Program-made: the position numbers and the translations under genes
The notes under the pieces: model-generated
What the model was told of the DNA's origin: nothing
Databases searched by the model: none
Seen by the model: the letters and a program-made list of their open reading frames with translations, nothing else
Part shown: positions 9,524 through 56,715 of the stretch, in pieces
Layout of the letters: every line of letters starts with the position of its first letter
Numbering within the stretch: the stretch's first letter is position 1
Assembly: GCA_036570125.1 (NCBI GenBank)
Contig: DATCPK010000112.1
Coordinates: 398 to 64,397 of the forward strand
Direction of reading: 5' to 3'
Origin: Candidatus Limnocylindria bacterium
GTDB lineage: Bacteria > Chloroflexota > Limnocylindria > P2-11E
DNA: 64,000 nucleotides

Positions 9524-9580
9524 CAGACACACGTGAGTGGAGGGGGCGACACTCGCCCCCTCCCCGCTTGAGGGGGGCAT

Positions 9581-15253: not shown

Positions 15254-16382
15254 CTAGCTCTGTGCAGGGCCGATGCCATCGTCGCCTGTCGGACCGCTGG
15301 GCGGCCGAGAGAGCGCGGCTTCGATAAAGGGATCGATGTCGCCGCCGAGCACACGGGTAGGGTCGCCGATCTCGATACCAGTCCGGTGGTCCTTCACGAG
15401 CGTGTAGGGGTGAAGGATGTACGAGCGGATCTGACTCCCCCAGTCAGCGGAGCGCATCTCTCCGCGTTCCTTCGCCTGCGCTTCCTCCTGCTCCCGGACC
15501 TGGCGCTCCAGGAGGCGCGCGCGAAGGATCTTCATCGCGGTCTCCTTGTTCTGGAGCTGCGAGCGCTCGTTCTGGCAGGCGACGACGATCCCGGTCGGTA
15601 GATGCGTGATGCGGACCGCCGTCTCGGTCTTGTTGACGTTCTGTCCGCCCGCACCGGTCGCGCGGTAGGTGTCGATCCGGAGGTCCTCCGGACGAACTTC
15701 GACTTCGGCCTCGCTTTCGACCTCCGGCGTGGGATCGACAAGCGCGAACGATGTCTGCCGGCGTTTCTGAAAATCGAACGGCGAGATGCGCACGAGCCGG
15801 TGAGTGCCCCGCTCGGTCTTCAGGTAGCCATACGCGTAGGGACCTTCGACCGTGAGGGTGGCGCTCCGAAAGCCCGCCTCGTCACCAGGGGTTGATTCGA
15901 GGAGCTCGGCTTTGTAGCCGCGCCGCTCTGCCCAGCGCAGGTACATCCGCACGAGCATCTCGGCCCAATCCGCGGCGTCGGTACCTCCGACGCCCGCGGA
16001 GATCGCGAGGACGGCGCTTCGCTCATCGTAGGGGCCGGAGAGCTGCGCCTCGAGACTCGCCTTGGCGACTTCCTCGGTGAGCTCGACCGTGTCGTGAGCG
16101 ATGTCGGCTTCCATCTTGGGATCGCCGTCGACCATCGAGGCGAGCTCGCTCAGATCTTTCGCGCGCGCACGAAAACGTTCCCACCGCTCGAGACGACCGC
16201 GCGCTCTTCCGAGGCGCTTCAGGATCGTTTGTGCTCGCTGCCGGTCCTGCCAGAGGTCCGGTCTTGAGGACTCGGTCTCTAGCTCCGCGATCTCACGCGT
16301 GAGAGCCGGCAGGTCAAAGGAACACCGCCATGCGTTCGATGCGGTCGCGCAGAGTCGAAAGGGCCGCCTGGTCGACGGTCAA
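15254..16382 (-). CDS. prfB: peptide chain release factor 2, two-frame gene with programmed +1 frameshift
   Basis: Frame 0 runs from TTG 16382: [22 protein letters not shown], then in-frame TGA within CTT TGA C (16319-16313). The +1 frame continues [24 protein letters not shown]... into the track ORF ([19 protein letters not shown]..., [16 protein letters not shown] with GGQ). Confidence 0.9.
16313..16330 (-). other. RF2 autoregulatory frameshift site
   Basis: Minus strand reads TGGCGGTG TTC CTT TGA C. The slippery CTT-TGA-C is identical to the E. coli prfB site. An SD-like GGCGGTG sits 3 nt upstream, the same spacing as in E. coli. Confidence 0.85.
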
Positions 16383-17677: not shown

Positions 17678-18487
17678 CTACGTGGCTGTAGTCGTAGCAC
17701 GCTGGCCTCGCGAGTCAAGACGCCCACGTGCGCTCAGAATTGGAAGCATGATCGCGCCGCCCACCGCATAGATAAGGCCGAGGAGCTGAGCCTCCTGCAG
17801 CCCGTCGACGAAGAGCGGGTCCAGACGAAGGAATGAGGTGAGGAACCGGAAGCCGCCGAACAGAAGGAGATACGCCCAGTACACGCGACTTTCGGGAGGC
17901 CGTCCGCGGATGAGGCGCCAGTACACGACCAGAGCAACGAAGATCACGACCATGATGAGACCGTCGTAGGCCGCGACCGGATGGACGTAGGTCGTCTGGC
18001 CGAGCGTGGCCGGGTTCGTGTACCGCACGCACCAGGGAAGCCCCGAGCACGCGATGGCGTGGTGCTCGCCGTTGATGATGTCACCGATGCGGCCGATCGC
18101 CTCGCCCAGCGCGATGCCGATCACCGAGATGTCGAACATGAAACCCAGCGGCAAGCGGAGCCGTCGCGCCGCAAAAAACCCAGCGATCGTGGAGCCAACA
18201 GGAGCACCGGCCACGGCGATGCCCCCATTCCAAAACGCCACGAGTTCGAATGGCCGGCCGTCATAGACGCCCCAGTTGTCAGCAACGTGACCGATGCGGG
18301 CCGCGATCAATCCGCCCAGCACCACCGCGATGGCGAATGGATAGAGGCGATCGTCGCGGATGAGGTAGCGGGCCGCGCGGAACGATACGAAGCTGCCGAC
18401 GATCATCCCGACCAGTGAGAAGATCGAATGCCAGGCGAAGCTCAGCGATCCGACGTGAAGATTCGGATCGAAGGGGAGGTCGATCAG
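17678..18487 (-). CDS. lgt: prolipoprotein diacylglyceryl transferase, copy 2 (non-canonical CTG start proposed)
   Basis: Lgt motifs FWNGGIAVAG and GRIGDIINGEHH. The 27 codons upstream of the track ORF's ATG (LIDLPFDPNLHVGSLSFAWHSIFSLVG) align residue-for-residue with copy 1's N-terminus. The only possible initiator there is CTG 18487-18485. Confidence 0.8.
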   Translation of the reverse strand: MIDLPFDPNLHVGSLSFAWHSIFSLVGMIVGSFVSFRAARYLIRDDRLYPFAIAVVLGGLIAARIGHVADNWGVYDGRPFELVAFWNGGIAVAGAPVGSTIAGFFAARRLRLPLGFMFDISVIGIALGEAIGRIGDIINGEHHAIACSGLPWCVRYTNPATLGQTTYVHPVAAYDGLIMVVIFVALVVYWRLIRGRPPESRVYWAYLLLFGGFRFLTSFLRLDPLFVDGLQEAQLLGLIYAVGGAIMLPILSARGRLDSRGQRATTTAT

Positions 18488-19281
18488 ACCGCGAAACTAC
18501 GCGCTTGCGCGCGAGGACGAGTGAGCAGGCGGAACAGCATCGTGACGGCCGCGGCAAACACGAGGACGGCGATGGTCTGATCCTGGCGCAGACCGAAGGC
18601 GTACGTCGGATCGCCGATGCGGAGGAAGCCCAGGACGAAGCGGCCGGCCGCGTAGTGCACGGCCCAGATCCAGAAGATCACGCCATCGGGCCAGCGGCCA
18701 ATGAAGCGGCGGAGCCACAACGTGAGCGCGACCGCCGACAGGTCCCAGATCATGTCGTAGGCGACCACGAGGTGGACCGGCCCCGGCTGGCCGAGCGTGT
18801 CGGGATGCGTGAAGCCGACGCAAATGCCCTCGGGTGGCGTACACGCCGTCGCGTGGTGCTCGCCGTTGATGATGTCGCCGATCCGCCCGATCGCGAACCC
18901 GAGTGCGATTCCCGGTGCCGCCGCATCGGCACCGTAGCCGATCGGCACGCCGCGCCGGATCGCGGCGAGCGTCCCGCCGCCCACGCCGCCGATGGCCGCG
19001 CCCCAGATCGCGATCCCGCCGGTCCAGATGAAGAGGACCTGCTCGGGATGGGCGAGGTAGTACGGCAGCTGGTCGATGACGTGAACGAGCCGCGCGCCGA
19101 CGATGCCGCCGACGACACCCCACGTGGCGACCGCCCAGCCGTCGTCCTCACTGATCCTTCCTCTCAGAAGCCGGAGCGCAAGCCAGACACCAAAGAAGAT
19201 GCCGACGGCCGTGAAGATCCCGTGCCATGCGAGCGTGATCGGCCCGAGATGCACGTTGGGGTCGAAAGGGATCTCGATCAC
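18484..19281 (-). CDS. lgt: prolipoprotein diacylglyceryl transferase, copy 1
   Basis: 265 aa, GTG start. MIEIPFDPNVHLGPITLAWHGIF, IWTGGIAIWG, GRIGDIINGEHH. Confidence 0.9.
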   Translation of the reverse strand: MIEIPFDPNVHLGPITLAWHGIFTAVGIFFGVWLALRLLRGRISEDDGWAVATWGVVGGIVGARLVHVIDQLPYYLAHPEQVLFIWTGGIAIWGAAIGGVGGGTLAAIRRGVPIGYGADAAAPGIALGFAIGRIGDIINGEHHATACTPPEGICVGFTHPDTLGQPGPVHLVVAYDMIWDLSAVALTLWLRRFIGRWPDGVIFWIWAVHYAAGRFVLGFLRIGDPTYAFGLRQDQTIAVLVFAAAVTMLFRLLTRPRAQARSFAV

Positions 19282-19452: not shown

Positions 19453-22038
<2,586 letters not shown>

Positions 22039-22058: not shown

Positions 22059-23048
22059 CTAGGTGACCTGCAGCGGCAGCTGCAACCCGGGCGGGTTGAA
22101 GAGCGCGCCGACGGACTCGCCATCGTGGATCCGTCGAATGGCCTCGGCGAAGAGCGGCGCCACGGTGAGGACCTCGATCTTGCCTGTGTTCGCGGCTGAG
22201 GGTCGGAGGGGCACGGTGTCGGTCGTGATCAGCTTTTCGATCCCCGTGTCGATGAGTTTTTCAGCGGCGTTGCCCGAAAGGAGCGCATGTGTGCAACCAA
22301 CATAGATCTCGTTGACGCCGCGCTCCTGCAGGATGCGGACGGTGTTGAAGATCGTCGTGCCGGTGTCGATCTCGTCGTCGATGATGATCGCGCGCTGCTT
22401 GTCGATGTCTCCGATGACGGCGACGACCTCGCTCCTCCCGCTGTTGTCCCGATGCGTCTTCTGCATGAACACGAGCGGGATCTGCAGAGACTCGGCGATA
22501 CGGCGAGCGGCGTTCGCGTAACCAAGGTCGGGGACGACGAGCGCGACACCGTTCGGGTCCTTCTCGACGATCGAGCGGAAGGCTTCGATGAGTAGGTTGC
22601 GCGCCGAGAGCTCGTCGCCGGGGATCGAGAAGAATCCCTGGATCTGCATCTGGTGCATGTCCATCGTCAGGAAGCGGTCCGCACCGGCGACCCCGATCAG
22701 ATCGGCGAGCAGCCGCGCGGTGATCGGCACGCGAGGCTGGTCCTTCTTGTCGCTCCGACCGTACGCGTAGTACGGCATGACCGCGGTGATGCGGCCGGCG
22801 GAAGCGCGCTTGAACGCGTCGAGCATGATCAGAAGCTCCATGATCGCGTCGCTGACCGACGGACCGACGAGCGACTGCACGATGTAGACGTCGTGCTCGC
22901 GCGCGTTCTCGTTGATCTTGACGAAGATGTTGTCGTTCGCAAATTTGGTGACGTCGGCGTCGCCGAGCGGGACCTCCAGATGGGCGGCAATGTCTCTCGC
23001 GAACTTGGGGTGGGCGTTTCCGGTGTAGACGGACAGTCCTCGGAACAC
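22059..23048 (-). CDS. prs: ribose-phosphate pyrophosphokinase
   Basis: 329 aa. PYYAYGRSDKK, HQMQIQGFF and PRPP-binding loop IIIDDEIDTGTT. Confidence 0.95.
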   Translation of the reverse strand: MFRGLSVYTGNAHPKFARDIAAHLEVPLGDADVTKFANDNIFVKINENAREHDVYIVQSLVGPSVSDAIMELLIMLDAFKRASAGRITAVMPYYAYGRSDKKDQPRVPITARLLADLIGVAGADRFLTMDMHQMQIQGFFSIPGDELSARNLLIEAFRSIVEKDPNGVALVVPDLGYANAARRIAESLQIPLVFMQKTHRDNSGRSEVVAVIGDIDKQRAIIIDDEIDTGTTIFNTVRILQERGVNEIYVGCTHALLSGNAAEKLIDTGIEKLITTDTVPLRPSAANTGKIEVLTVAPLFAEAIRRIHDGESVGALFNPPGLQLPLQVT

Positions 23049-23084: not shown

Positions 23085-23291
23085 ATGAAAAGTATACGGG
23101 CGCTAGCCTCCGATTTCGTGACCATCGCGACGGGCCATCGGCTGCGCTGGACGGTGGTCTGGGTGCTCGTCATCGCGTGGTTCGTGGCGCAGGCGGCCAA
23201 CTTCGGGGGCAACGCCATTCACCTGGTATTGCTGGTCGCGATCGGCCTCCTGGTGTACGAACTGCTCGCGGAGGACGCCCCCGCCACCTGA
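23085..23291 (+). CDS. small membrane protein (lmo0937-like, tentative)
   Basis: C-terminal part of a longer track ORF. Two hydrophobic helices with GGNAIHLVLLVAIGLLVY resembling the GG-x-LIHLLLV motif of that family. Start is ATG 23085 or GTG 23118. Confidence 0.45.
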   Translation: MKSIRALASDFVTIATGHRLRWTVVWVLVIAWFVAQAANFGGNAIHLVLLVAIGLLVYELLAEDAPAT

Positions 23292-23297
23292 CACCGG

Positions 23298-24056
23298 CTA
23301 TCTCGGCGCGAGACGTCTCCCGGCCATGAATCGCTCCCGGTCGAGCGCGGCGCCGGCGATCATTGCGTCGGTCTTGTCCAGCGGTTTGATTTCGAAGTGC
23401 GTGTCGGTACCCACCGAGAAGAGCGCGCCGGCGCGCGCGGCGCGCATCAAGAATTCCCGGTGCGGAACGCCGTAGCTCTCGTTGATCTCGATCGCGATCC
23501 GACCCTTGACGCACAGGTCGATGAGCCGCTCCTGCCATTCCTCCGGATAGACGCGCTCGGGATCGCCGAGCGCCTGAAGCGCCGAGAAGGTGGGGTGCCC
23601 GAGGATGTCGATGCGATCGCGGTCGATGCCCTCGGCGACGACCTCGAGGGTGCGCTCGAGTATTCGCTTCTGCAGCTCGGGATCGGAGAAGCGCTCGCGT
23701 TCCTTCCAGCTCTTGATGCGGCCCTTCACGAACGCACCTGCGTCGTCGTATCTGATGAATGTGCCATCGAGGTCGATCTGATGGATCGCTCCGATCATGT
23801 AGTGCAGCGACTCGCGTGTCTCAGCGCCGAGAGGCGGCGCTACACCGAGGTCGTACTCGAGCCCGACCCGCAGTCCGAGGCGTGACGCTTCATCGATGTA
23901 GCGCTTGACGGCATCTTCGTTCGGCAGCTTGTCGCGCCAGGGGTAGTGGTCCGACACGCCGTGTGGCCGCACCGCGACGCTCTTCGCCCGGTCCGCGAGA
24001 GAGACCGTTCCGTCGGAGCGGTCGCTGTGGACGTGGTGATCGAAAAGCGCGCTCAC
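23298..24056 (-). CDS. PHP-domain metal-dependent phosphoesterase
   Basis: FDHHVHSDRSDG N-terminal PHP motif, further His/Asp motifs (GAIHQID, ILGHP, GTDTH). GTG 24056 gives a GTGA overlap with the upstream gene. Confidence 0.75.
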   Translation of the reverse strand: MSALFDHHVHSDRSDGTVSLADRAKSVAVRPHGVSDHYPWRDKLPNEDAVKRYIDEASRLGLRVGLEYDLGVAPPLGAETRESLHYMIGAIHQIDLDGTFIRYDDAGAFVKGRIKSWKERERFSDPELQKRILERTLEVVAEGIDRDRIDILGHPTFSALQALGDPERVYPEEWQERLIDLCVKGRIAIEINESYGVPHREFLMRAARAGALFSVGTDTHFEIKPLDKTDAMIAGAALDRERFMAGRRLAPR

Positions 24057-25156
24057 GTCTCGGGGTGCCCGGCCCAGGCGGCCTCGACCATGGTCCACAG
24101 CACGCCGGAGACGAGGGTGTGACCGCCTAACAAAAGCGGGAACGGCGCCTCGCGCGCAGCCTCGGTGAACTCACGCAGCGGCTTCGACTGGATCCGCTCG
24201 GCCATGAAGAGATACGACGCGAAGCGCTCCGCCGCGCCGGGGCGCCAGCCCAGGTGCGCGAAGAGGACGAGGGTGTCGAAGAGCATGCCGTCGCACAGCT
24301 CCCGCATCCGCGCGAAGAACTCGCGCGGACCGATCTTCTCGTAGAGGAAGCCCAGCGCGCTGCGCGCCTCGCCGGACGTGTCGCGGCCCGCGGCCTGCAT
24401 CCCGCGCTCTTCCGCCAGCATCCGCACGCGACACGCGGTCTGCGTCTCGATGAACGTCCACACCGGGGCGCCGACACGACCCGCGACGAGCAGCTCCTTG
24501 TCGGGCGTCGTCACCAGGCGCATGAGCGCCTCGATGCGCTCGGCGAGGATCTCCTGCCACGCTGGGAGCGAGCGGAGCTCGGGCGGGCACTTGGGGTGAC
24601 GCGCGAGAAGCGCGGCGTCGGTCGGCGTGTCGACATCGAGCAGCGTCGCCGCCGACTTCGCGAGCTGCCGCGATGAGAGGCCAGCCTGCTGATGCAGGCG
24701 GCGCGGCAGCGGGTTGTCGGTCGCCGGCAGATCGATCGCGTCGAGCGCCGACGCCGGCGTGAACGCGATGAGGTCCGCGGAGTAGGCGTTGTTCGAGAGG
24801 ACGACGGCCTCGCTGGATTCAAGATCTTCGCGCAGTGCGCGCAGCTCGCTCGTCTCGAGCAGAGCGCCAGCCCCGGCGCCGATGGTGCAGACGCGATCGA
24901 GCTTCTTCTCGTGGACGATCCGCGAAAGCTCCTGACCGAAATGGAATGGCTCGGTACGCACGGGAAGGATCGCCGCGCCCTTGCCGCGGAAGACCGCCGC
25001 CGCCTCGTCGTCGTTCGTGACCGCGTAGAGGCGATTGAAACCGGCGTCCGCGGCACGGCCCAGCACGACACCGCCGATTGCGAGCTTCACCGTGTCCAGC
25101 TGTCGCTCGAGGTCGCTCGAGCCACCGCGCCCGAAGAAGATCAGAAACGCGCTCAC
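24053..25156 (-). CDS. hypothetical protein; N-terminal half weakly CofC/MobA-like nucleotidyltransferase fold
   Basis: 367 aa with coding-like codon usage. LLDVDTPTDAALL resembles the DvDtpeDL motif that closes MobA/CofC-type NTase domains. C-terminal 160 aa not recognised. 4-nt overlaps on both sides. Confidence 0.6.
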   Translation of the reverse strand: MSAFLIFFGRGGSSDLERQLDTVKLAIGGVVLGRAADAGFNRLYAVTNDDEAAAVFRGKGAAILPVRTEPFHFGQELSRIVHEKKLDRVCTIGAGAGALLETSELRALREDLESSEAVVLSNNAYSADLIAFTPASALDAIDLPATDNPLPRRLHQQAGLSSRQLAKSAATLLDVDTPTDAALLARHPKCPPELRSLPAWQEILAERIEALMRLVTTPDKELLVAGRVGAPVWTFIETQTACRVRMLAEERGMQAAGRDTSGEARSALGFLYEKIGPREFFARMRELCDGMLFDTLVLFAHLGWRPGAAERFASYLFMAERIQSKPLREFTEAAREAPFPLLLGGHTLVSGVLWTMVEAAWAGHPET

Positions 25157-26616
25157 ACCTGCGACGCTAGCTCACTCCCGCGATAGGCACGCAGCTCGAG
25201 CCGCACCAGCAAGACAAGCACGAGGGCGCTCAGAGCGGCCCCGGCGATGGCGCGCTCGTCCGCGGTCGGCACGAGCCGCAGGACCGCGAGCCACTGCGGA
25301 TCGCTCCAGTTGAAGAGCTTCGACGGGTCGTCGTTGACGTTGACCGGGAACGTGTCCCAGGACTTGTCGTAGAGGAAGGCGGCGGCCTGAAAGAGCACGA
25401 ACGACCACGCCGCCATCAGGAAGAAGACCACGCGCGCGAGGCGCGATCCCAACATGCCAACGGACGTTCCCCACGCGAGTGCAGCGAAAAGGACGGGCGC
25501 GAAATCGTCAAGGAAACGCGAGCCGAACACGCGGCCGCCCCACCACTCCGAGTACATCGCGTACAGCACGAGCGCCGCTATCCACGCGAGGGACAGCCCG
25601 CGCAGCCGACCAGCGACCTCGCCCGGCCATCGCCACGCGCGGAGAAGGGCGACGAACGCGAAGATCAGGTACGGCGTGTAGACGAAAAGGCCGCGCGACG
25701 GAGAGGCCAGGAGGCCATAGAGGCCGGTCTGGATCGGGGTGGCGAACATCTTGACCCCGTACCCCTGCTCGAACGGCGAGCCGAAGGCGAGATCGTTGTA
25801 GGCGAGGAGCGGGGCGATCCCGATGGCCGCACCGAGGAGCATGGCGAAGATCCTCGTCGGACGGAAGCCATGGAGGCCGACCGCGACGAGCCCCGTCGTC
25901 TGGCGCACCACGGAACCGAGACCGAGCACCAGGCCAGCGGCAAGATCGCGCGACAGCGGGACGGCCTCCTCGCGGAGGACGAGCCAGAGCGCCGACGCCA
26001 CCGCCAGGTGCACTCCCGAGTGCTGCCAGAGCGCCTGGCTCGCGACGGTCCGGACGCTCGTCGCGAGGAAGTAGAGAAGGATCAGCGCGAGAGACCAGCG
26101 CGGCGTCGCAAAGCGACGCAGCACCGACCAGAGAACGAGGGTCGCGAGTATTTCGACGATCGCCGCGACGACGTGACCACCGTGCACGAGCAGCCCGAGG
26201 TCGAGCGGGTCCCAGCCTGTGAGGACGAACGGCGCGAAGAACGGCAGCGCGAGGATCCCCATCCCCGGCGGGAACACGGAGCACACGTGATCGTTCGGAC
26301 CGGGCGCCGGTGGACCGCCGAGGCTTCGCTTCGCCGTCGGCGGCGCCGTCGCGGTCGACACGCCGCACGCCCGGAAGAAATAGGCCTCGCGGTCGAGCTT
26401 GGCCGTGGTCCCCGCGCCGGCCACGGTGAACTCGTCGTAGTCGACGTCGTGCTCGTTGATCACGGTCCACGCGAAGAGCGCGTTCGGAAGCACGTCCGGC
26501 GACCAGAGACCAGGTGCTTCCCCGCCCGGCGTTTGCTCCGGACGGATGTCGTTCAGATTGGCGAACGCGAGGACGAACAGCAGAAGGCCACGCACCAACC
26601 AGCGCGAGCGCGTCAT
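25153..26616 (-). CDS. polytopic membrane protein, GT-C-like glycosyltransferase architecture (tentative)
   Basis: 487 aa. TM1, then a ~110-aa loop with an acidic cluster (NEHDVDYDEF), then about 10 more TM helices. Architecture is like ArnT/PMT/DUF2029-type GT-C enzymes. No family assignment is possible by eye. Confidence 0.6.
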   Translation of the reverse strand: MTRSRWLVRGLLLFVLAFANLNDIRPEQTPGGEAPGLWSPDVLPNALFAWTVINEHDVDYDEFTVAGAGTTAKLDREAYFFRACGVSTATAPPTAKRSLGGPPAPGPNDHVCSVFPPGMGILALPFFAPFVLTGWDPLDLGLLVHGGHVVAAIVEILATLVLWSVLRRFATPRWSLALILLYFLATSVRTVASQALWQHSGVHLAVASALWLVLREEAVPLSRDLAAGLVLGLGSVVRQTTGLVAVGLHGFRPTRIFAMLLGAAIGIAPLLAYNDLAFGSPFEQGYGVKMFATPIQTGLYGLLASPSRGLFVYTPYLIFAFVALLRAWRWPGEVAGRLRGLSLAWIAALVLYAMYSEWWGGRVFGSRFLDDFAPVLFAALAWGTSVGMLGSRLARVVFFLMAAWSFVLFQAAAFLYDKSWDTFPVNVNDDPSKLFNWSDPQWLAVLRLVPTADERAIAGAALSALVLVLLVRLELRAYRGSELASQV

Positions 26617-27236
26617 TCCTCGGCCGCCACGACATATGCACGCACCGCGCGCGCTCCGGCCGCACGTGCCGCGGCGGCCGCGTCGAAGAGCGTCGCGCCG
26701 GTCGTGGCCACGTCGTCCACGAGCGCGACGCGCAGCCCGCGGAGCGAGCCGACCTCCGCGACGAACGCTCCCCGGACGTTCGCCGCACGCGCCACCCGAT
26801 CGAGCTCGACCTGCGGGCGGCCGCCGCGTATGCGGTGCAGCGCCGGCCGGAGGGGCAGCCCGGTGTGCGCCGCGACGGCGTCAGCGAGCAGTGCCGCCTG
26901 GTCGTACCCACGCGCGGAGGCGCGTGACTTGTGAAGGGGGACCGGGACGATCGCGTCCAGGGTCGTGCCGCGCGCCAGGTCGCGCGCAAGCTCGAGCGCG
27001 ACGAGCCCTCCGAGGTCCTGGGCCAGGCCCGGCTCGGCGCCGTACTTGAGCCGGTGGACCGCCGCGCGGAGCGGGCCGGCGTGCGCGCCCGCCGCGCGGA
27101 TCGCAAGGCGGCCGTCGTGCGCGACGGGCTCGCATTGAACTCGGCAGGGAACGCAGAACCAGCTCCCGGGCTCGCCGCAGCCCGCGCAGCGCGGCGCCAG
27201 CAGGACGTCGCGGACCCCGAGCGCGAGCTCCATCAC
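26613..27236 (-). CDS. comFC: ComF family protein (phosphoribosyltransferase-like, ComFC)
   Basis: 207 aa. N-terminal 4-Cys zinc ribbon CAGCGEPGSWFCVPC, RGYDQAALLA, and PRTase loop VALVDDVATTGATL. Confidence 0.85.
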   Translation of the reverse strand: MMELALGVRDVLLAPRCAGCGEPGSWFCVPCRVQCEPVAHDGRLAIRAAGAHAGPLRAAVHRLKYGAEPGLAQDLGGLVALELARDLARGTTLDAIVPVPLHKSRASARGYDQAALLADAVAAHTGLPLRPALHRIRGGRPQVELDRVARAANVRGAFVAEVGSLRGLRVALVDDVATTGATLFDAAAAARAAGARAVRAYVVAAEE

Positions 27237-27562
27237 CTGGCGGCCGCCTCCGACGAGATGAGTTCGTCACCGGCTTGCGTGCCGGTCCGCGCCGCCGTTC
27301 CGGCCGGCAGCTCGAGCACGCTATCGGTGCCACGGGGCGCGCCGATGGCCGGCACCCACGGACGGAGGTTCGGGGAGACCCGCAGGACGCGCATCGACCG
27401 GTCCAGGAAGACCGCGTCGATGGCGAAGCGCATGAAGAACATCGTGATCGATCCGGTCTTCGTGATGAGCAGGCCCTCACCGTCAGCGAGTCCGGATCGG
27501 GGAATCAGGCCGAAGCCTCGGGTCAGGAAGCTGTTGGCGACGTCACAGCGCGTGGCGACCAC
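27233..27562 (-). CDS. DUF192 (COG1430) domain protein
   Basis: 109 aa. FLTRGFGL...GLLI...SITMFFMRFAIDAVFLD...VLELPAG matches the DUF192 pattern. Confidence 0.75.
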   Translation of the reverse strand: MVATRCDVANSFLTRGFGLIPRSGLADGEGLLITKTGSITMFFMRFAIDAVFLDRSMRVLRVSPNLRPWVPAIGAPRGTDSVLELPAGTAARTGTQAGDELISSEAAAR

Positions 27563-28525: not shown

Positions 28526-29500
28526 TTAAACCTTGATGTTCGTGATCTTCTGGATCGCGAAGAACCCGATGAGCATCATGATCCCGCCGCACACGAGCAG
28601 GATCTGTCCGATCGTCTCCGTGAAGAGCGGCTGCATGAACTCAGGGTTGATGAAGTTCAGCGTGACCATGATCGCGATCGGCAGGAACGCGACGAGGTAA
28701 CCCGAGTAGCGGCCCTGGGCGGTCAGCGTGCGGATCTCGCCTTTGATCCGGACGCGCTCGCGGATCGTGAACGCGATCGTGTCGAGGATTTCCGCAAGGT
28801 TTCCACCGACCTGCTGCTGCACGCCGATGGCGGTCACCATGAGGTCGAGGTCGTCGCTCTTGATGCGCCGGACGAGGTTGGAGAGTGCCTCCTCCATGCT
28901 CAGACCGAGGTTCACCTCGCGAACGACGCGGCCCATCTCAGGTCCCATCGGCGCCGGCGATTCGCGCGACACGAGCTCGATCGACTGGAGGAAGCTCGAG
29001 CCCGCGCGAAGGGAGTTCGACAAAAGTGTGATCGTGTCGGGAAGCTGCTTGTTAAAAGCATTGAGGCGGCTGCCGATGCGCCGGCCGACCCAGATGCGCG
29101 GGAGGAAGTAGCCGAGGATCGCGCCGACCACCGCGGAGAGCGGGTCGCGAAGCAGCAGAAGCACCGCGGCGAGGCCGAGCGAGAGGCCGACGCGGATGTA
29201 GTAGTACTCGGCGACTCGCAGGCGCAGGTCCGCGCGTGCGAGGTCACGCTGGACTTTCGAGCTGAAGCGCTTGTCCTGTACGTCGCCGGAAAGCGTCGCG
29301 AATGGATCGATCTCCCGGCGCCCCTTCTTCCGCTCTTTCTTCGCCTCGGGCGTAGCGGTCTGGGTGCCGCCGGCGTAGCGCTGCATGCGCGCGCCGAGCG
29401 ATTCGGGCGACCCGCCGCCGAGCATCGAGGAGATGCCCCAGAAAAAGAGCAACACGCCGATGAAGGCGGTCGCCGGGATGATGTACTCGAGACCGATCAA
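28526..29500 (-). CDS. tadB: type II secretion system F-family protein (TadB)
   Basis: Start at TTG 29500 (TTGA overlap with the cpaF stop). T2SSF domain (LPDTITLLSNSLRAGSSFLQSI). The upstream part of the 430-aa track ORF is out-of-frame overlap with cpaF. Confidence 0.85.
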   Translation of the reverse strand: MIGLEYIIPATAFIGVLLFFWGISSMLGGGSPESLGARMQRYAGGTQTATPEAKKERKKGRREIDPFATLSGDVQDKRFSSKVQRDLARADLRLRVAEYYYIRVGLSLGLAAVLLLLRDPLSAVVGAILGYFLPRIWVGRRIGSRLNAFNKQLPDTITLLSNSLRAGSSFLQSIELVSRESPAPMGPEMGRVVREVNLGLSMEEALSNLVRRIKSDDLDLMVTAIGVQQQVGGNLAEILDTIAFTIRERVRIKGEIRTLTAQGRYSGYLVAFLPIAIMVTLNFINPEFMQPLFTETIGQILLVCGGIMMLIGFFAIQKITNIKV

Positions 29501-30903
29501 CGAAGACCCGCGGACATATCGCCGAACACGTTCTGCGGGAGCTTGATGCCTGCCGCGTCGAACTTCTCCGAGAACTTCGGACGGATGCCGGTCGGCCGCA
29601 GGCGGCCCTGGACCTTGCCGTCGACGAACCCGGTCTGCTCGAAGACGAACACGTCCTGAAGGACGATGGTGTCGCCCTCCATCCCCTGGACCTCGGTGAT
29701 GTTCGTGATCTTGCGCGACCCGTCCTTCAGTCGCGAGATCTGGATGATGAGGTCGAGGGCGCTTGCGATCTGCTCGCGGATGGCGCGTGCCGGCAGCTCG
29801 ACGCCGGCCATGAGGCACATCGTTTCGAGACGGGCGAGGATGTCTCGCGGGGAGTTCGCGTGGCCCGTCGAGAGCGAACCGTCGTGGCCTGTGTTCATGG
29901 CTTGGAGCATCGAGAGGGCCTCGCCACCACGCGTCTCACCGACGACGATGCGCTCAGGGCGCATACGTAGAGCGTTCCGGACGAGGTCCATGATCGTGAC
30001 CGCGCCCTTTCCTTCGATGTTGGCGGCGCGTGACTCCAGACGAACGACGTGGTCCTGCACGAGCTTCAGCTCGGCAGCGTCCTCGATGGTGATGATCCGC
30101 TCGTCCTCCGGGATGAAGCCCGAGAGGATGTTGAGCAGCGTCGTCTTTCCTGAGCCGGTGCCACCGGAGATGAACATGTTGAGGCGCGCTTCGACGCACG
30201 CGCGCAGGAATTCCATCATCTCGGCCGTCGCGGTGCCGAACTTGATGTAGTCCTCGACGGTGATGCGGTACTTGGGGAACTTTCGGATCGTGACGACGGG
30301 CCCGTTGAGCGCGAGCGGCGGGATGATGATGTTCACGCGCGAGCCGTCCGGAAGACGCGCGTCCTCGAAGGGCTTCGCTTCGTCGACGCGCCGGCCGATC
30401 GGCGCGATGATCCGCTCGATCACGCGGGACACATGCTCGTCGCTGACGAACGTGACGTCGGAGAGCTGCAGCTTGCCCTTGCGCTCCACGTACGTGCGAA
30501 AGGGCCCGTTGACCATGATCTCTGTGATGGTGTCGTCGTTCAGCAGCGGCTGGATCGGACCGAAGCCGAGGATCTCGTCCATGATCTGCTCGAGCATTCG
30601 CTGACGCTCGACGCGCGTGACGACGATCCCTTCCTCATCGATGAACTTGTTGAACATTTCCTCGATGGACGACTTCACGGCTTTCGCGTCGGACAGATCG
30701 AGTCGTGGGTCGAGGTTGTTGATGATCCGGCTCTGCAGGCGCGAACGAACGTCACGCTGCGCGTCGCGCGCCGGGGCGGCGGACTGCGAGAGCGGTCCTT
30801 CGGCGGGCGGCTTCGGGGGCTGTTGTCCGGCAGGTGCGCCGGGCTGCTGTGGCTGTTCCGGCTGACCGGGGCGGGCGCCTTCGATGCGTCTTAGAAGCGA
30901 CAT
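29497..30903 (-). CDS. cpaF: Tad pilus ATPase CpaF/TadA (motor 1)
   Basis: 468 aa. Pro/Gln-rich N-terminus, Walker A GGTGSGKTT, Asp box IITIEDAAEL, Walker B RMRPERIVVGETRGGEA, His box AMNTGHDGSLSTGHAN. Confidence 0.92.
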   Translation of the reverse strand: MSLLRRIEGARPGQPEQPQQPGAPAGQQPPKPPAEGPLSQSAAPARDAQRDVRSRLQSRIINNLDPRLDLSDAKAVKSSIEEMFNKFIDEEGIVVTRVERQRMLEQIMDEILGFGPIQPLLNDDTITEIMVNGPFRTYVERKGKLQLSDVTFVSDEHVSRVIERIIAPIGRRVDEAKPFEDARLPDGSRVNIIIPPLALNGPVVTIRKFPKYRITVEDYIKFGTATAEMMEFLRACVEARLNMFISGGTGSGKTTLLNILSGFIPEDERIITIEDAAELKLVQDHVVRLESRAANIEGKGAVTIMDLVRNALRMRPERIVVGETRGGEALSMLQAMNTGHDGSLSTGHANSPRDILARLETMCLMAGVELPARAIREQIASALDLIIQISRLKDGSRKITNITEVQGMEGDTIVLQDVFVFEQTGFVDGKVQGRLRPTGIRPKFSEKFDAAGIKLPQNVFGDMSAGLR

Positions 30904-31023: not shown

Positions 31024-32295
31024 CTATCGAGCGAAGAGCCGCATGCCCCCGGTTCGAGCTGCCGCTTTCGGAGCGCCGGCCGCTGCGGCCTCGGGCGCCT
31101 CCTGCGTGATGCGCTGCGCGAGGGTAAAGATGTCCTTTGCAACCTGACTCTCACGATGACTGATAACGAACGGCACCCCCCGGTTCACGGCGAGGACCAG
31201 TGTCCGCCCGTCGGAAACGATCGTGTGCGGGATCTTGCGACCGAGACTCGCTTCCACATCTGATGCCTTGATGCCACCGGAGCTGTCATTGCGGTTCGCG
31301 ACGAGCTGCACTTTGTCGCTGCCGTACCCGAGCTTCTCGGCGATCTCCATGAACACGCGCACGTTCTTGAGGCTCGTGATCTCGAGCGTCATGAGCGTGA
31401 GGATCACGTCGGCAACGTCGAGCATCGTGATGACCTGCTCCTGGAATGACGGCCAGGTGTCCACGACGATGTACGCGTAGCGCTCGCGCAGGAGCTCGAG
31501 GATGTGTTTCATATTCGCGCCGGTGATGAGCTCGGCCGACTCCGGCGTCGGCGGAGCGAGAAGGACCTTGATGCCGGTGGAGTGCGACACCAGCACCGAC
31601 TCGAGCACGTCGGAGTCGGTGTTCTCGAAGGACCCGATGAGGTCGGCGATCGTCTTGGCCTTTGGGCTCATGTTCAGGATCACGGCGATATCGCCGAACG
31701 GCAGGCTTCCGTCGACGAGGCAGACGGGCTTCTGCGTGAGCTGATGCAGCGCCACGGCCAGGTTGGTCGCGATGGTCGTACGGCCGACCCCGCCCTTTGG
31801 CGAGAAGAACGTGATGATCTGCCCGGTCTGGCGTGCGCCCGCGGCCGGAGCGAGTGGGTTGACCGGTGCGGCCGCGGCGGGCGCGGCCGCGGCGTAGCGG
31901 GCGCGCTTCACCTTCTCGAGCTCGTGGACGTGGCGGATCGCGTTGATGAGCTCGTCGGCCGAGAACGGCTTCACCAGGAACTCGCGCGCGCCGGCGAGCA
32001 TCGAACGGCGCAGGTAATCCTGCTCGCCCTGGACGCTCATCATGATGATCGGCGACTCGGGGACCGTGTTGGAGATGATCTCCGTGGCCGTGATCCCGTC
32101 CATGTCGGGCATGTTGATGTCCATGAGGATCACGTGAGGCCGCTCTTTCTTCGCGAGATTTACGGCAGCCTGACCACCGTCGGCGGTACCGGCAACTTCC
32201 ATATCCGGCTCAAAGCCGATCAGCTTCGCGAGGTTATCGCGAGTGTCGGCGATGTCGTCGACGATCAGGATGCGTATCTTCTCGGCTTCGGCCAT
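31024..32295 (-). CDS. cpaE: response-regulator receiver fused to CpaE/TadZ ParA-MinD-type ATPase
   Basis: 423 aa. Canonical REC (ILIVDD, ILMDINMPDMDG, LVKPF), Ala/Pro linker, deviant Walker A SPKGGVGRTT. Confidence 0.88.
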   Translation of the reverse strand: MAEAEKIRILIVDDIADTRDNLAKLIGFEPDMEVAGTADGGQAAVNLAKKERPHVILMDINMPDMDGITATEIISNTVPESPIIMMSVQGEQDYLRRSMLAGAREFLVKPFSADELINAIRHVHELEKVKRARYAAAAPAAAAPVNPLAPAAGARQTGQIITFFSPKGGVGRTTIATNLAVALHQLTQKPVCLVDGSLPFGDIAVILNMSPKAKTIADLIGSFENTDSDVLESVLVSHSTGIKVLLAPPTPESAELITGANMKHILELLRERYAYIVVDTWPSFQEQVITMLDVADVILTLMTLEITSLKNVRVFMEIAEKLGYGSDKVQLVANRNDSSGGIKASDVEASLGRKIPHTIVSDGRTLVLAVNRGVPFVISHRESQVAKDIFTLAQRITQEAPEAAAAGAPKAAARTGGMRLFAR

Positions 32296-32404: not shown

Positions 32405-32920
32405 TCACGTCGTTGCTCCCGGGAAGCGACCGGAGAGCTCGAGCGCGAGCGCGACGAGGGTGCCGAGCCCGAGCGCCACGCCGTACGGAATCCACGTCTT
32501 CATCACGGGGACCATCGGCACCGTGGCTGCAGTCGCAGGTCGGAGGCGACGCACAGCGATGAAGCCCAGGGCGATGACACCCCCGAGCAGCGCGCCGTAG
32601 ACCGCCCCAGCGAGAAGAAGCCCGAGTCCGCGCATCGCGCCGACGGCCATGAGGTATTTGCCATCGCCCGCCTTCAGCCCGCCCATCGCGTAGAACGGGT
32701 ACGCGACGAGGAAACCGACGACGAGACCCGCGACGTGATCAATGAGGCCGTTCGCCATCACCTCGCCGGGCAGCCCTTCGAGCGCGCCCAGCACGAGGCC
32801 GGCGGCCATGACGGGATAGGTGAAAGCGTTGGGGATCCGCCGATAACGCCAGTCCGTGTAGACAACGGCAACAACGAACGAGACAAGGATGACGTCCTCG
32901 ACTGCTCGTACCGCGTCTAT
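32405..32920 (-). CDS. cpaA: A24-family prepilin peptidase CpaA/TadV (ATA start proposed)
   Basis: The track ORF (ATG 32809) has only the second catalytic motif (GLKAGDGKYL). The in-frame upstream 37 codons encode TM1 plus the first Asp motif (VVYTDWRYRRIPN). There is no ATG/GTG/TTG between the upstream TAA (32935-32933) and 32809. ATA 32920-32918 sits 7 nt after AAGGGGA. Confidence 0.75.
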   Translation of the reverse strand: MDAVRAVEDVILVSFVVAVVYTDWRYRRIPNAFTYPVMAAGLVLGALEGLPGEVMANGLIDHVAGLVVGFLVAYPFYAMGGLKAGDGKYLMAVGAMRGLGLLLAGAVYGALLGGVIALGFIAVRRLRPATAATVPMVPVMKTWIPYGVALGLGTLVALALELSGRFPGATT

Positions 32921-32942
32921 TTCGAAGTCCCCTTAGAAGACG

Positions 32943-32998: not shown

Positions 32999-33151
32999 CT
33001 AGGTGAGGTTGTTGCCGATGTTGCTGAAGATGTTCGTAATCTGGCCGCGAAGGAAGATCATCGCGACGATAACGGCAATGGCGATGACGGCGATGATGAG
33101 TGCGTATTCGACCAGACCCTGGCCTTCGTCGTCGCGCAGGAATGCGAGCAT
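32999..33151 (-). CDS. flp: Flp family type IVb pilin (50 aa; not in ORF track)
   Basis: MLAFLRDDEG/QGLVEYALIIAVIAIAVIVAMIFLRGQITNIFSNIGNNLT. Flp signature G/xxxxEY followed by a hydrophobic helix. ATG 33151 is preceded by AAAGGGGGA. Confidence 0.9.
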   Translation of the reverse strand: MLAFLRDDEGQGLVEYALIIAVIAIAVIVAMIFLRGQITNIFSNIGNNLT

Positions 33152-33324: not shown

Positions 33325-34401
33325 CTAGGCCAACAAAGAGAGGAGCGGAGGTCCGAGAAAAACACAAAGCAGAGCGGGGAGGACGCACACCGCCAGCGGA
33401 AAAAGCATTAGTACTGGGAGCCGACGCGCCTGCGCTTCCGCGCGCCGGCGATCGCTGGTGCGAAGCGCATCGGCCTGGGTCACGAGGAGACTTGCGAGAG
33501 GCGAGCCGAACCGCGTCGCGGCGCGCACCAAGGCAGCGACACGAGCTTCGGTTGGTCCGGCGCTGCCGAAGGCGCCGAACGCTTCGCTGGCGCCACGACC
33601 CAGAGCGAGGTCCGCGAGAAGGCGCCGGGCCTCGGGGAGCCGGGCCACCATGGGCGCCCGGGTGACGAGGGCCGCGAGCGCCAGCTCGAACGTGAGTCCG
33701 GCTTCGAGACCGACGATGACCGCGTCGAGAAGGGTCGCGAGATCGGCCGCCGGTGACGAGAGTCGGAGGATCCTCCAGAGCCACAGTCCGCCGATGATCT
33801 CGAGCGCGATCGCGACGACGAGAAGCCAACGACCGCGATCGAACATCACCGCAAGGTATTCAGGCGTCATGACCGCGAAGAACATCCCGCCGAGCGGCGC
33901 GAGCGCAACGAGCACGATCGCCGACATGCGGCCTTGCGCGGTGAGCGCCTTGCGCTCGTCCTCGAGTGCGATGCGTCCACGCAGCAACGTCGCGACGCGC
34001 GCGAGGCTTCGCCCGATCCTGCCGCCGCTCCGCGCGAACGCACCAAGCACGATCGCGAACGGCGCGAGGTCTTCCCCGGCGACGACGCCCGCATAGGCAC
34101 CGACGGCTTCATCGACCGACGCACCAAGGGCCATCGACGCCGCCGCGCGCTCGGTGGGGAGCGCGAGGGCGCGGGGCAGAGTCGGCGCCACCTCGCTGAG
34201 CGCGAGCTGAACGGAGAGGCCGCTCGCCAGTGCCGCGGCGACGGCGTCGACAAGCCCCGGCAGCGCGAGGCGGCATTCCCTCATGCCCGAGCGTGCGCGC
34301 GGGTCGAGCCGTGCCGCGGCCGCGAGCAACGCGCCTGCGCGCCGTTCGTCGAGAAGAACAAGGAGCGTCACCCCGGCGACGGCGAGAAGCAACGCGATCA
34401 C
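33325..34401 (-). CDS. fused TadB-TadC-like protein (two T2SS-F domains)
   Basis: 358 aa. Two repeats of the T2SSF pattern (LPGLVDAVAAALASGLSVQLAL ... and LATLLDAVIVGLEAGLTFELAL ...), each followed by TM segments. GTGA overlap with ATPase 2. Confidence 0.75.
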   Translation of the reverse strand: MIALLLAVAGVTLLVLLDERRAGALLAAAARLDPRARSGMRECRLALPGLVDAVAAALASGLSVQLALSEVAPTLPRALALPTERAAASMALGASVDEAVGAYAGVVAGEDLAPFAIVLGAFARSGGRIGRSLARVATLLRGRIALEDERKALTAQGRMSAIVLVALAPLGGMFFAVMTPEYLAVMFDRGRWLLVVAIALEIIGGLWLWRILRLSSPAADLATLLDAVIVGLEAGLTFELALAALVTRAPMVARLPEARRLLADLALGRGASEAFGAFGSAGPTEARVAALVRAATRFGSPLASLLVTQADALRTSDRRRAEAQARRLPVLMLFPLAVCVLPALLCVFLGPPLLSLLA

Positions 34402-35510
34402 GGATAGATCCGCGTGAGCGTGTACGGATCGCCACGCTCCGGCGAGAGCTCCGCGATCTCAACGACCCTGCGAACACCCGTTGGATCGCGCTCCTGGTGT
34501 ACGACGACGTCGATGCCGCGACGGATCTGCTCGCGGATGGCTTCGAGCGGCAGATCGATGCCACCCATCAGAGCCATCGTCTCGACCCGCATGAGCGCGT
34601 GGGGCGCGCCATTCGCGTGCGCGGTGGTCAGCGACCCGCGGTGTCCGGTGTTCATCGCCTGGAGCATGTCGAGAGCCTCACCGCCGCGCACCTCGCCGAC
34701 GACGATCCGGTCGGGACGCATGCGAAGCGCGGCGCGCAGAAGTGCCCGCACGTCGACCGCGCCCGACCCCTCGACGCTTGGAGCGCGCGTCTCGAGCGCG
34801 ACGACGTTCAGCTGAGGAAGGCGCAGTTCGGCCGCGTCCTCGATGGTGACGATGCGCTCGCGCTCGCCAACGGCGAAGGCGAGCGCGTTGAGCGTCGTCG
34901 TCTTGCCGCTGGACGTGCCGCCCGAAACGAGCACGCTCCGGCGCTCGCGCACGGCGCGCACGAGAAACGCCATCGCATCCGGCGGCAGGGTCCCGTTCCG
35001 GACCAGGTCGTCCGGGCTCAGGGCACGCTGCCCGAATCGACGGATCGTGAGAACGGGCCCGACGAGCGAGATCGGCGGGATGACCGCGTGCACCCGCGAG
35101 CCGTCCGGGAGGCGACCGTCCACGAGGGGACTCGCGAGATCGATCCGCCGGCCAAGCGGCGCAACGAGCCGCTCGATCAGCACGAGGATCTCCTCCGGAT
35201 CGGAGAAACGGATGGCCGTCTCCTCGAGCCGGCCATCGCGTTCGATCCAGACTCCGCGCGTGCCGTTGACCATGACCTCGGTCACCCGATCGTCGCGCAG
35301 CAGTGGCGCGAGCTCGCCGAGCCCGAACAAACGGTCTTCGAGCCAGCGCTCGAGCAGCCGCAGCTCCCCCGCCGGGATGACAAGGCGTTGGTCCACGAGC
35401 GTTTCGCGAAGCGCCGCCGGTAGCTGCTCGCGGCGGGGCCTGCCGTCGGGCGCTTCACGAAGACGTGCAACGACCCCGCGCTCGATGCGTGCTCGCGCCG
35501 CGACCGTCAT
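34398..35510 (-). CDS. Tad-type secretion ATPase (CpaF/TadA-like, motor 2)
   Basis: 370 aa. Walker A GGTSSGKTT, Asp box IVTIEDAAEL, Walker B RMRPDRIVVGEVRGGEA, His box AMNTGHRGSLTTAHAN. Confidence 0.9.
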   Translation of the reverse strand: MTVAARARIERGVVARLREAPDGRPRREQLPAALRETLVDQRLVIPAGELRLLERWLEDRLFGLGELAPLLRDDRVTEVMVNGTRGVWIERDGRLEETAIRFSDPEEILVLIERLVAPLGRRIDLASPLVDGRLPDGSRVHAVIPPISLVGPVLTIRRFGQRALSPDDLVRNGTLPPDAMAFLVRAVRERRSVLVSGGTSSGKTTTLNALAFAVGERERIVTIEDAAELRLPQLNVVALETRAPSVEGSGAVDVRALLRAALRMRPDRIVVGEVRGGEALDMLQAMNTGHRGSLTTAHANGAPHALMRVETMALMGGIDLPLEAIREQIRRGIDVVVHQERDPTGVRRVVEIAELSPERGDPYTLTRIYP

Positions 35511-55528: not shown

Positions 55529-55556
55529 CACGCGACTTGCGTCTCACCCTTCCGCA

Positions 55557-56702: not shown

Positions 56703-56715
56703 ATTTCGCGACGCC

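Follow-up and report, generated by a model that had tools for sequence, protein, structure and literature searches.

The window analysed here is a 64-kb stretch of DNA from Candidatus Limnocylindria bacterium, a member of the Chloroflexota, and the coordinates of its features are window positions. On the minus strand an array of Tad/Flp pilus genes (flp, tadV, a cpaE with a receiver domain, cpaF, tadB and tadC) runs directly into a chain of five further genes, which encode a DUF192 protein, a ComF-family protein, a polytopic membrane protein of 487 amino acids (aa) that we call M487, a 367-aa protein of an unnamed family that we call X367, and a phosphoesterase of the PHP family. On the basis of translations of the open reading frames (ORFs), a base-by-base reading of the gene junctions, and comparison with related loci within and outside the class, we propose that this chain is probably a lineage-specific fusion of operons, which joins three parts with different histories, rather than one dedicated machine. 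The chain comprises the following genes:

27233..27562, minus strand: DUF192 protein (PF02643, E-value 6.5e-18)
26613..27236, minus strand: ComF-family protein (TIGR00201, 1e-21, and PRK11595 (GntX), 1e-24, both below the cutoffs)
25153..26616, minus strand: M487, polytopic, a remote GT-C-like putative glycosyltransferase (NF047440, below the cutoff)
24053..25156, minus strand: X367, unnamed family, with a CofC/FbiD/MobA-like N-terminal fold in the AlphaFold 2 (AF2) model
23298..24056, minus strand: PHP phosphoesterase (PF02811), the last gene of the unit; the longest ORF extends to 24098

Gene junctions and the transcription unit

As read from the sequence, the GTG start codon of the DUF192 gene (27562) lies 46 nucleotides (nt) behind the stop codon of tadC, and each of the subsequent junctions is a 4-nt overlap: GTGA at 27236-27233 (DUF192/ComF), ATGA at 26616-26613 (ComF/M487), GTGA at 25156-25153 (M487/X367) and GTGA at 24056-24053 (X367/PHP). 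The coordinates, the gap and the four junctions agree with an earlier, sequence-only reading of this locus. The gene identities given there hold as well: besides DUF192 and the PHP phosphoesterase, the chain encodes a zinc finger of the ComF type joined to a phosphoribosyltransferase (PRT) domain, a polytopic protein that is GT-C-like and has an acidic first loop, and a protein similar to MobA/CofC. For ComF, the gene callers applied to public contigs that are 100% identical to the window placed the start instead at the ATG of position 27233, so that the overlap shrinks to 1 nt (TGATG); the coupling between DUF192 and ComF is tight under either start. Four consecutive overlaps are the mark of an operon, yet they are unexceptional in this genome, because 4-nt overlaps are possible for nine of the 33 same-strand neighbour pairs in the window, and three of them follow one another in a second tad cluster described below. 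Terminator-like and sigma-70-like sites were not found in the 46-nt gap, where the consensus scan was at or below the shuffle expectation and uninformative. The chain ends with the PHP gene (stop at 23298), which a convergent DUF5670 gene separates from prs and secA. Given the overlaps and the 46-nt gap, the operon-level coupling to tad suggested by the sequence-only reading is plausible, and the chain is probably co-transcribed with the tad genes as one transcript that ends at PHP.

Conservation within Limnocylindria

The locus was compared among 44 Limnocylindria loci (L007-L050) from a species-level genome collection, with metagenome contigs in addition. Limnocylindria, a class of soil Chloroflexota, supplied the close homologues. 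The order flp-tadV-cpaE-cpaF-tadB-tadC-DUF192-ComF-M487-X367-PHP-prs-secA is retained in all loci that possess enough flanking sequence, L033 excepted; the chain is conserved in about 30 genomes of the class, with protein identities that fall to about 55-65%. The lowest identities to the window proteins are 66-72% for X367, 53-63% for M487 and 56-69% for DUF192, and the 4-nt overlaps are retained in a locus (L001) where X367 is 70% identical. L033 presents the arrangement tadV-DUF192-ComF-M487-X367-PHP, without cpaF-tadB-tadC upstream. Two further loci deviate by single losses: in L040 (8404-8583) all that remains of ComF is 59 aa in frame, in which the zinc finger is fused to the last ~20 residues without the PRT domain between them, while the other genes of the chain are intact, and in L020 the PHP gene is absent. 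Judging from these three loci, parts of the chain appear to be separable within the class, and the chain is apparently not an obligate unit. In L030 (7179-8285) and L031 (8732-9826) an extra ORF of 368 aa separates M487 from X367 and overlaps each of them by 4 nt. It exhibits a HxDxxxxN…IDW motif that looks kinase-like by eye; the assignment as a kinase is unsupported, as no Pfam, NCBIfam or PDB match was obtained. A literature search returned nothing on pili or competence in Limnocylindria.

Genomic context outside Limnocylindria

A scan of genomes (one per species) with a 12-sequence profile of X367 found 535 relatives, and 36 loci from outside Limnocylindria were retrieved (L051-L086), which represent Dehalococcoidia, Anaerolineae, other Chloroflexota and Bacillota, including Natronincola and Limnochordaceae. 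Neither tad genes nor DUF192, M487, PHP or prs were detected within 10 kb of X367 in any of these 36 loci; compared with them, M487 and PHP are found beside X367 in Limnocylindria only. Clustering of the ORFs yielded a composite order ComF - hpf - pfkB - X367, followed by glyA-rpsF-ssb-rpsR, by rsmI-metG or by secA; upstream of X367, ComF is present in 12 loci, hpf in 16 and the PfkB kinase in 11. ComF immediately adjoins X367 in five loci, and in one of them (L051, Dehalococcoidia) the two genes share a 4-nt overlap (ComF 9285-9995, X367 9992-11092). ComF-hpf-pfkB-X367 is the conserved order in Chloroflexota; that in Bacillota is ComFA-like helicase - ComF - flgM…fliS - hpf - X367 - secA, with an ORF after secA that resembles prfB, by eye only. 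The neighbours were identified with Pfam (DEAD/Helicase_C, S30AE for hpf, and PfkB), and the kinase scores above the cutoff of the NCBIfam 1-phosphofructokinase equivalog. The hpf, pfkB, glyA and rsmI genes are missing from the window as well as from the Limnocylindria loci. Since the window retains the succession ComF…X367…secA…prfB, its ComF and X367 genes evidently sit, as far as gene order can tell, at an inherited housekeeping position. In Actinobacteria, too, the arrangement is ComF-hpf-secA, with Rv3242c-Rv3241c-Rv3240c of M. tuberculosis as an example. Rv3242c has been named a phosphoribosyltransferase (PMC8350138).

DUF192 presents a different picture. The window protein matches PF02643 (COG1430) with 65.1 bits against a cutoff of 27 (6.5e-18), over profile positions 3-94 of 96, and it is predicted to be cytoplasmic, since its hydrophobicity reveals neither a signal peptide nor a transmembrane (TM) segment. 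A search of genomes with the DUF192 profile gave almost only Limnocylindria proteins, and the closest plasmid homologues were obtained from a plasmid collection. A plasmid of Moraxella bovis carries cpaB, a secretin-like gene, an ATPase gene, tadB, tadC, DUF192 and tadE in this order, i.e. with DUF192 in the same position as in the window. Streptomyces plasmids, which form two groups ~60% identical, exhibit the order cpaF-tadB-tadC-(62-aa ORF)-tadE-tadE-tadG-LysM-DUF192, and on an Alkaliphilus plasmid a prepilin peptidase gene is followed by DUF192. The DUF192 genes of these non-Limnocylindria loci are located at 7944-8267 in L091, 8932-9288 in L089, 8983-9342 in L090 and 8962-9288 in L088. 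Together with the window, this places DUF192 genes inside Tad or prepilin-peptidase loci, or at their ends, in Chloroflexota, Pseudomonadota (Moraxella), Actinomycetota (Streptomyces) and Bacillota (Alkaliphilus). Among 20 of the 22 papers that mention DUF192, not one is concerned with Tad pili in its title or abstract. With respect to linkage of the chain genes to tad in other genomes, DUF192 is linked in Moraxella, Streptomyces and Alkaliphilus, whereas ComF and X367 are linked in none of the 36 loci. From its sequence and recurrent position, DUF192 is most readily taken as the last gene of the Tad unit, presumably encoding a small cytoplasmic accessory protein.

The X367 family and its predicted fold

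The X367 family comprises 627 clusters at 50% identity, with full-length members of ~370 aa. Neither Pfam nor NCBIfam has a model for this family. For the window protein no Pfam, NCBIfam or PDB match was obtained by sequence or profile searches, and CofC and NTP_transf_3 did not appear even at an E-value of 10; among 105 family members, the Pfam CofC domain was matched marginally by eight. In 44 diverse members the residues N122, N123, S126, D128, D147, N148, D174, D176, G226, R227, E249, R251, D294 and R311 are invariant, and the family is characterized by the motifs GGxGxS..ER, FHFG, NN..S.D, DN.L, D.DTP.D, GRVG, R.R..(S/A)EERGM, D.RVLFAH, DRF.SDL and LGGHSLVSGG. The AF2 model calculated from a 105-sequence alignment reached a predicted local distance difference test score (pLDDT) of 93.8 and a predicted template modelling score (pTM) of 0.92; a single-sequence AlphaFold model (pLDDT 42) was discarded.

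A Foldseek comparison of the model with the PDB revealed as best matches a 3-phosphoglycerate guanylyltransferase (7p97), FbiD of M. tuberculosis (6bwg/6bwh) and CofC (2i5e), with E-values from 4.9e-7 to ~1e-5, a probability of 1.00, target-normalised template modelling scores of 0.64-0.68 and ~190-215 residues aligned; cytidylyltransferases rank next after these guanylyltransferases of the F420 pathway. The N-terminal half of X367 is hence predicted with confidence to adopt the CofC/FbiD/MobA-like nucleotidyltransferase fold, which supports the CofC-like guess made from the sequence alone. FbiD coordinates two Mg2+ ions, along with the phosphate of its substrate, through three Asp residues (PMC6450877). 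The invariant residues D128, D174 and D176 of X367 may be equivalent to D116, D188 and D190 of FbiD. The C-terminal ~170 residues are modelled as an alpha/beta domain with four strands and many invariant Arg and His residues; no match to this domain was present among the matches listed by Foldseek against the PDB and viral structures, which were GT-A/nucleotidyltransferase folds or multi-domain alignments with low template modelling scores. Longer relatives of X367 were checked for domain fusions, and one with an extra domain was found (a C-terminal TrkA-C).

ComF, M487 and PHP

The ComF protein aligns over its full length with TIGR00201 (77.8 bits against a cutoff of 233.55, 1e-21) and with PRK11595 (GntX; 87.2 against 304, 1e-24). 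Its translation contains the zinc finger C17-x2-C20-x8-C29-x2-C32 and an intact loop for binding of phosphoribosyl pyrophosphate (PRPP), VDDVATTGATL, at residues ~162-172 (canonical DDxxTTGxTL); the PRT domain scores 24.1 bits with Pfam Pribosyltran, just below the cutoff of 26.3. A sequence search against the PDB returned no chain at an E-value of 0.01. A zinc finger with four Cys residues and a PRT domain with the PRPP loop are the features of the ComFC family, and both are essential in ComFC of Helicobacter pylori; the crystal structure of ComFC with PRPP has been described, and ComF proteins are not known to catalyse any reaction (PMC9005727). The possibility that the chain is a defence system was also considered and dropped, as PADLOC gave just weak matches of ComF to PRT domains (PsyrT, ShosT).

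M487 possesses at least nine hydrophobic segments and, after the first TM segment, a loop of 86 aa with the invariant residues D41, D61 and E62 (DVDYDEF). All of the 25 orthologues searched match NF047440, the LA_3751/LA_3752 family of putative glycosyltransferases (best E-value 1.2e-13); the window protein itself scores 38.5 bits against a cutoff of 200. Matches to PMT_2 are marginal in nine of the 25 (best E-value 0.0011), and GT87 was matched by one. The window protein has no Pfam match, and no PDB match was found by sequence or profile search. Based on these profile matches and on the presence of the GT-C pattern, M487 is predicted to be a remote relative of putative GT-C glycosyltransferases. 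The PHP protein matches PF02811 with 31.2 bits (cutoff 26.4), and all of the 20 orthologues compared share its candidate metal ligands H8, H10, D15, H37, E67, H92, H154, D218 and H220; a search against the PDB gave no match at an E-value of 0.1.

The Tad genes and other neighbours of the chain

Upstream of the chain the minus strand carries the following genes:

32999..33151, minus strand: flp pilin, 50 aa, with a G/LVEYA processing motif (ORF; PF04964 Flp_Fap on an identical contig)
32405..32809, minus strand: prepilin peptidase of the TadV type (partial match to PF01478; true start probably upstream, near 32919)
31024..32295, minus strand: CpaE/TadZ-like ParA ATPase with an N-terminal receiver domain (Response_reg, 8.9e-29; AAA_31/ParA)
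29497..30903, minus strand: CpaF/TadA secretion ATPase (T2SSE, 2.9e-64)
28526..29500, minus strand: tadB (T2SSF, 1.9e-19; limits taken from the identical contig L004)
27609..28523, minus strand: tadC (T2SSF, 2.1e-18; 304 aa on an identical contig; the longest ORF extends to 28592)

These genes provide all the hallmarks of a Tad/Flp locus, i.e. a Flp pilin with the G/xxxxEY motif, the CpaF ATPase, both TadB and TadC, and a prepilin peptidase of its own, the start codon of which is uncertain. An ATG start of the peptidase ORF would exclude the N-terminal region with the first catalytic Asp (…VVYTDWRYRRIPN…; window 32405-32940). This region, VVYTDWRYRRIPN, is present in frame upstream, where the available start codons are ATA or ATC only; either the gene uses a rare start codon, or it encodes a truncated peptidase. 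Across Limnocylindria the mature part of the Flp pilin hardly varies, while the neighbouring genes have diverged to 55-70% identity, and its C-terminus reads …SNIGNNLT, with an N-x-T sequon at the extreme end. The receiver domain on the CpaE/TadZ-like ATPase suggests that pilus assembly may be controlled by phosphorylation. A second Tad-like cluster is adjacent on the same strand (33325-36954), with its genes joined by 4-nt overlaps. It encodes a fused TadB/C of 358 aa with two T2SSF stretches, a short CpaF-like ATPase of 370 aa, and proteins of 313 aa and 169 aa without a Pfam match.

On the other side, the chain is followed by these genes:

23086..23291, plus strand: DUF5670-like small membrane protein, 68 aa (translation; PF18919 weak on an identical contig)
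22059..23048, minus strand: prs, PRPP synthetase (Pribosyltran_N and Pribosyl_synth on an identical contig)
19453..22038, minus strand: secA (SecA domains), the anchor of the ComF...X367...secA...prfB neighbourhood
15254..16135, minus strand: prfB, release factor 2 (PCRF and RF-1 domains on an identical contig)

The DUF5670-like convergent gene between PHP and prs is carried by many Limnocylindria loci, not by all. Directly downstream of secA (17678-19281) there are two tandem paralogues of lgt (prolipoprotein diacylglyceryl transferase), then an NAD-dependent epimerase gene, and relatives of the window keep them. Two adjacent genes for GT4 glycosyltransferases and a gene for a polyprenyl synthase are located ~30 kb away from the chain (55461-57843 and 60771-61751); these are possible sources of lipid-linked sugars.

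Evolutionary and functional interpretation

We propose that the chain consists of three parts. The first would be DUF192, which serves the Tad machine as the tail gene of the unit flp, tadV, receiver-domain cpaE, cpaF, tadB, tadC, DUF192. The second would be ComF and X367, an ancestral pair that descends from the old Terrabacteria neighbourhood ComF-hpf-(1-phosphofructokinase)-X367, continued by either secA-prfB or glyA-rpsF-ssb-rpsR. The third part would be formed by M487, inserted within this pair, and by PHP, placed after it, in Limnocylindria only, and may represent a branch directed to the envelope. On account of its fold, its invariant Asp residues and its GGxGxS..ER loop, X367 would most likely transfer a nucleotidyl group from a nucleoside triphosphate to a phosphorylated small acceptor, as CofC/FbiD do; its C-terminal domain rich in Arg and His probably binds a second anionic ligand, and it would act in the cytoplasm, either as a partner of the PRPP-binding ComF or in a process common to both. 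M487 would most likely modify an extracytoplasmic acceptor, e.g. an envelope polymer or the pilin, and PHP would most likely strip phosphate from an intermediate. The composite model is built on the anatomy of the locus, its conservation across the class, the split of genomic contexts, the X367 fold and the intact motifs of ComF and PHP; a functional tie of the pilus with the four downstream genes would go a step further, as would the choice of any substrates, and our confidence in any particular chemistry is much lower than in the composite model.

The sequence-only reading had taken the linkage to the tad genes as a sign of DNA uptake driven by the Tad pilus. In such a scenario the pilus and ComF would constitute one system, where Flp captures DNA, and ComF, together with ComEC, passes single-stranded DNA to the cytoplasm. 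The precedent that it invoked is real: Flp pili are needed for transformation in Micrococcus luteus, where two tad clusters are present, one with a fused TadB/C (PMC4322843), and the window likewise has two clusters, one with such a fusion. Moreover, the window ComF has both features that are essential in ComFC of H. pylori, it is the positional counterpart of the ComF that follows the ComFA-like helicase in the Bacillota loci, and its overlap with DUF192 makes co-transcription with tad likely, in an order that is kept across the class. However, ComF occupies its ancestral place by X367 and secA, i.e. the usual Terrabacteria place upstream of X367, secA and prfB, and none of the 36 loci from other classes is linked to Tad. 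The adjacency of ComF and tad carries little weight, since ComF has stayed in place and it is the Tad operon that arrived later; this does not speak against Flp-dependent transformation in these bacteria as such. To our knowledge, the ComF family is nearly universal and occurs also in bacteria not known to transform. In Limnocylindria, L040 keeps the chain with a 59-aa ComF remnant and L033 keeps ComF without cpaF-tadB-tadC upstream; ComEA, ComEC, DprA and ComFA domains were not found in the annotated ~13-62 kb of the window; and M487, X367 and PHP are left without a role in this scenario. The argument from linkage to DNA uptake is weak as it stands in the gene order, and a joint uptake system of the Tad pilus and ComF appears improbable to us.

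The other idea of the sequence-only reading, a "sugar-phosphate activation and transfer" module, is compatible with the predicted folds, and one can envisage a glycosylation pathway in which ComF, X367, PHP and M487, together with prs, build a sugar or phospho-head group derived from PRPP or a nucleotide and transfer it onto the Flp pilin or the envelope. Two known routes follow a similar logic. One leads from PRPP to decaprenyl-phospho-arabinose, which arabinosyltransferases of the GT-C type use, among them TfpW, which acts on the pilin of Pseudomonas aeruginosa; in the other, the Lic-type decoration pathways, a kinase, a cytidylyltransferase and a transferase are combined. The predicted set of proteins fits such a scheme, as it comprises a PRPP binder, a CofC-like nucleotidyltransferase, a PHP protein with a candidate metal site and a GT-C-like protein with an acidic loop; prs is next door, in Limnocylindria only; a sugar-phosphate kinase often precedes X367 elsewhere, and an ORF with a kinase-like motif is inserted in two Limnocylindria genomes; and the pilin has an invariant exposed C-terminus with the N-L-T sequon at its end. 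On the other hand, in other classes ComF and X367 co-occur without a GT-C or PHP partner, so their core job must be independent of these proteins. ComF is a soluble type-I PRT, not a membrane enzyme of the UbiA type as used in the arabinose pathway, and ComF proteins have no known catalysis; an epimerase, a flippase and a polyprenyl-phosphate glycosyltransferase are absent from the chain; neither Pfam nor NCBIfam nor the PDB supports the kinase-like nature of the inserted ORF; prs serves an essential housekeeping function and is situated beyond a convergent gene; and L020 lacks PHP, as L040 lacks the PRT domain of ComF. We therefore regard the complete pathway as unlikely, somewhat less so than the joint uptake system. 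The opposite extreme would be a pure juxtaposition of five unrelated functions, where the overlaps reflect genome compaction and expression from the tad promoter is meaningless. The frequency of 4-nt overlaps in the window (9/33 pairs), the separate histories of the parts and the occurrence of single losses speak for it, but ComF and X367 are neighbours in different classes, and in L051 they overlap by 4 nt, which makes a random pairing very unlikely, and the entire order has been retained though the M487 orthologues have diverged to ~55% identity. Hence, we give this explanation hardly any credence.

The composite model, in which the chain is a fusion of a Tad tail gene, an ancestral ComF-X367 pair and a lineage-specific addition, has to be weighed against several observations that speak against it. 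The fused order with its 4-nt overlaps is maintained across the class, which could indicate selection for co-expression with the pilus and thus a real functional tie. L033, L040 and L020, the exceptions that argue for separable parts, are metagenome-assembled genomes, where assembly errors are possible. The description of M487 and PHP as lineage-specific relies on their absence beside X367 elsewhere, and their best-scoring matches all come from Limnocylindria. Finally, the link between DUF192 and Tad comprises four plasmid lineages and one counter-example, a remote DUF192 homologue of Halomonas (29% identity) without pilus context.

It is tantalizing to consider ComF and X367 as a conserved, unrecognised two-enzyme system of Chloroflexota and some Bacillota, where the PRPP-binding domain of ComF would truly act on a small molecule and X367, a CofC-like nucleotidyltransferase with a new C-terminal domain, would be its partner, and which in Limnocylindria has been wired to the Tad operon via a GT-C-like transferase and PHP, so that a compound derived from PRPP or a nucleotide modifies the pilus or the envelope, or regulates DNA uptake. 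This is a long shot, and we would be surprised if it held in full; if it were true, such a system would give the long-puzzling PRT domain of ComFC a biochemical context. X367 is in any case a large conserved family with a confident two-domain model, its gene is persistently linked to those for ComF, hpf and secA, and it may therefore help to explain the PRPP-binding domain of ComF. The recurrence of DUF192 in Tad or prepilin-peptidase loci of four phyla provides a first functional context for this "domain of unknown function". The present understanding of pili or competence is not yet altered by either of these leads. Our results also call for caution in the interpretation of gene order: tight overlaps and adjacency to pilus genes resemble a functional unit, and the comparison across classes reveals mostly an inherited housekeeping neighbourhood beside a Tad operon.

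Comparison with known systems

Compared to ComFC of Bacillus subtilis and H. pylori, the window ComF has the same two-domain build, with the four-Cys finger and the PRT domain that bears the PRPP loop, and its genomic surroundings are those of ComF in the Bacillota loci (…hpf…secA-prfB); however, it scores far under the curated cutoffs for ComF and GntX, and no ComFA helicase gene adjoins it. In Firmicutes and Actinobacteria ComF belongs to a conserved ComF-hpf-secA(-prfB) neighbourhood; in the window, too, secA and prfB lie downstream of ComF, whereas the Limnocylindria block is without hpf, has gained M487, PHP and prs, and abuts the Tad operon. X367 may be compared to CofC and FbiD, the guanylyltransferases that act on 2-phospho-L-lactate, phosphoenolpyruvate or 3-phosphoglycerate in F420 biosynthesis: its N-terminal ~200 residues share the MobA-like fold in the model and contain a DxD(TP) motif together with a third invariant Asp. 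On the other hand, X367 is only 12-18% identical to these enzymes, it possesses an additional conserved C-terminal domain of ~170 aa, and its neighbours are ComF, hpf, pfkB, secA and glyA rather than genes for F420 or molybdopterin. M487 resembles the GT-C enzymes (PMT_2/ArnT-like, GT87, LA_3751/LA_3752 of Leptospira, and TfpW) in being polytopic with a long acidic first loop predicted to be extracytoplasmic, and differs from them in that its matches are far under the family cutoffs and that a large C-terminal soluble domain is absent.

With the Tad system of M. luteus the window shares the standard upstream set (Flp, TadV, CpaE/TadZ-like, CpaF, TadB and TadC), and its second cluster is similar to tad-2 of that species in the fused TadB/C and in layout. 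It departs from known Tad loci in that TadE/F/G pseudopilin genes were not identified between tadC and the chain, in that its CpaE bears a receiver domain, and in that its operon extends into DUF192 and four non-pilus genes. We know of no other Tad locus in which the operon continues in this manner. Thus, the kinds of genes assembled here are known, except for the X367 family, for which a known fold accounts for one half of the protein, and what is new is their fused arrangement at the Tad locus.

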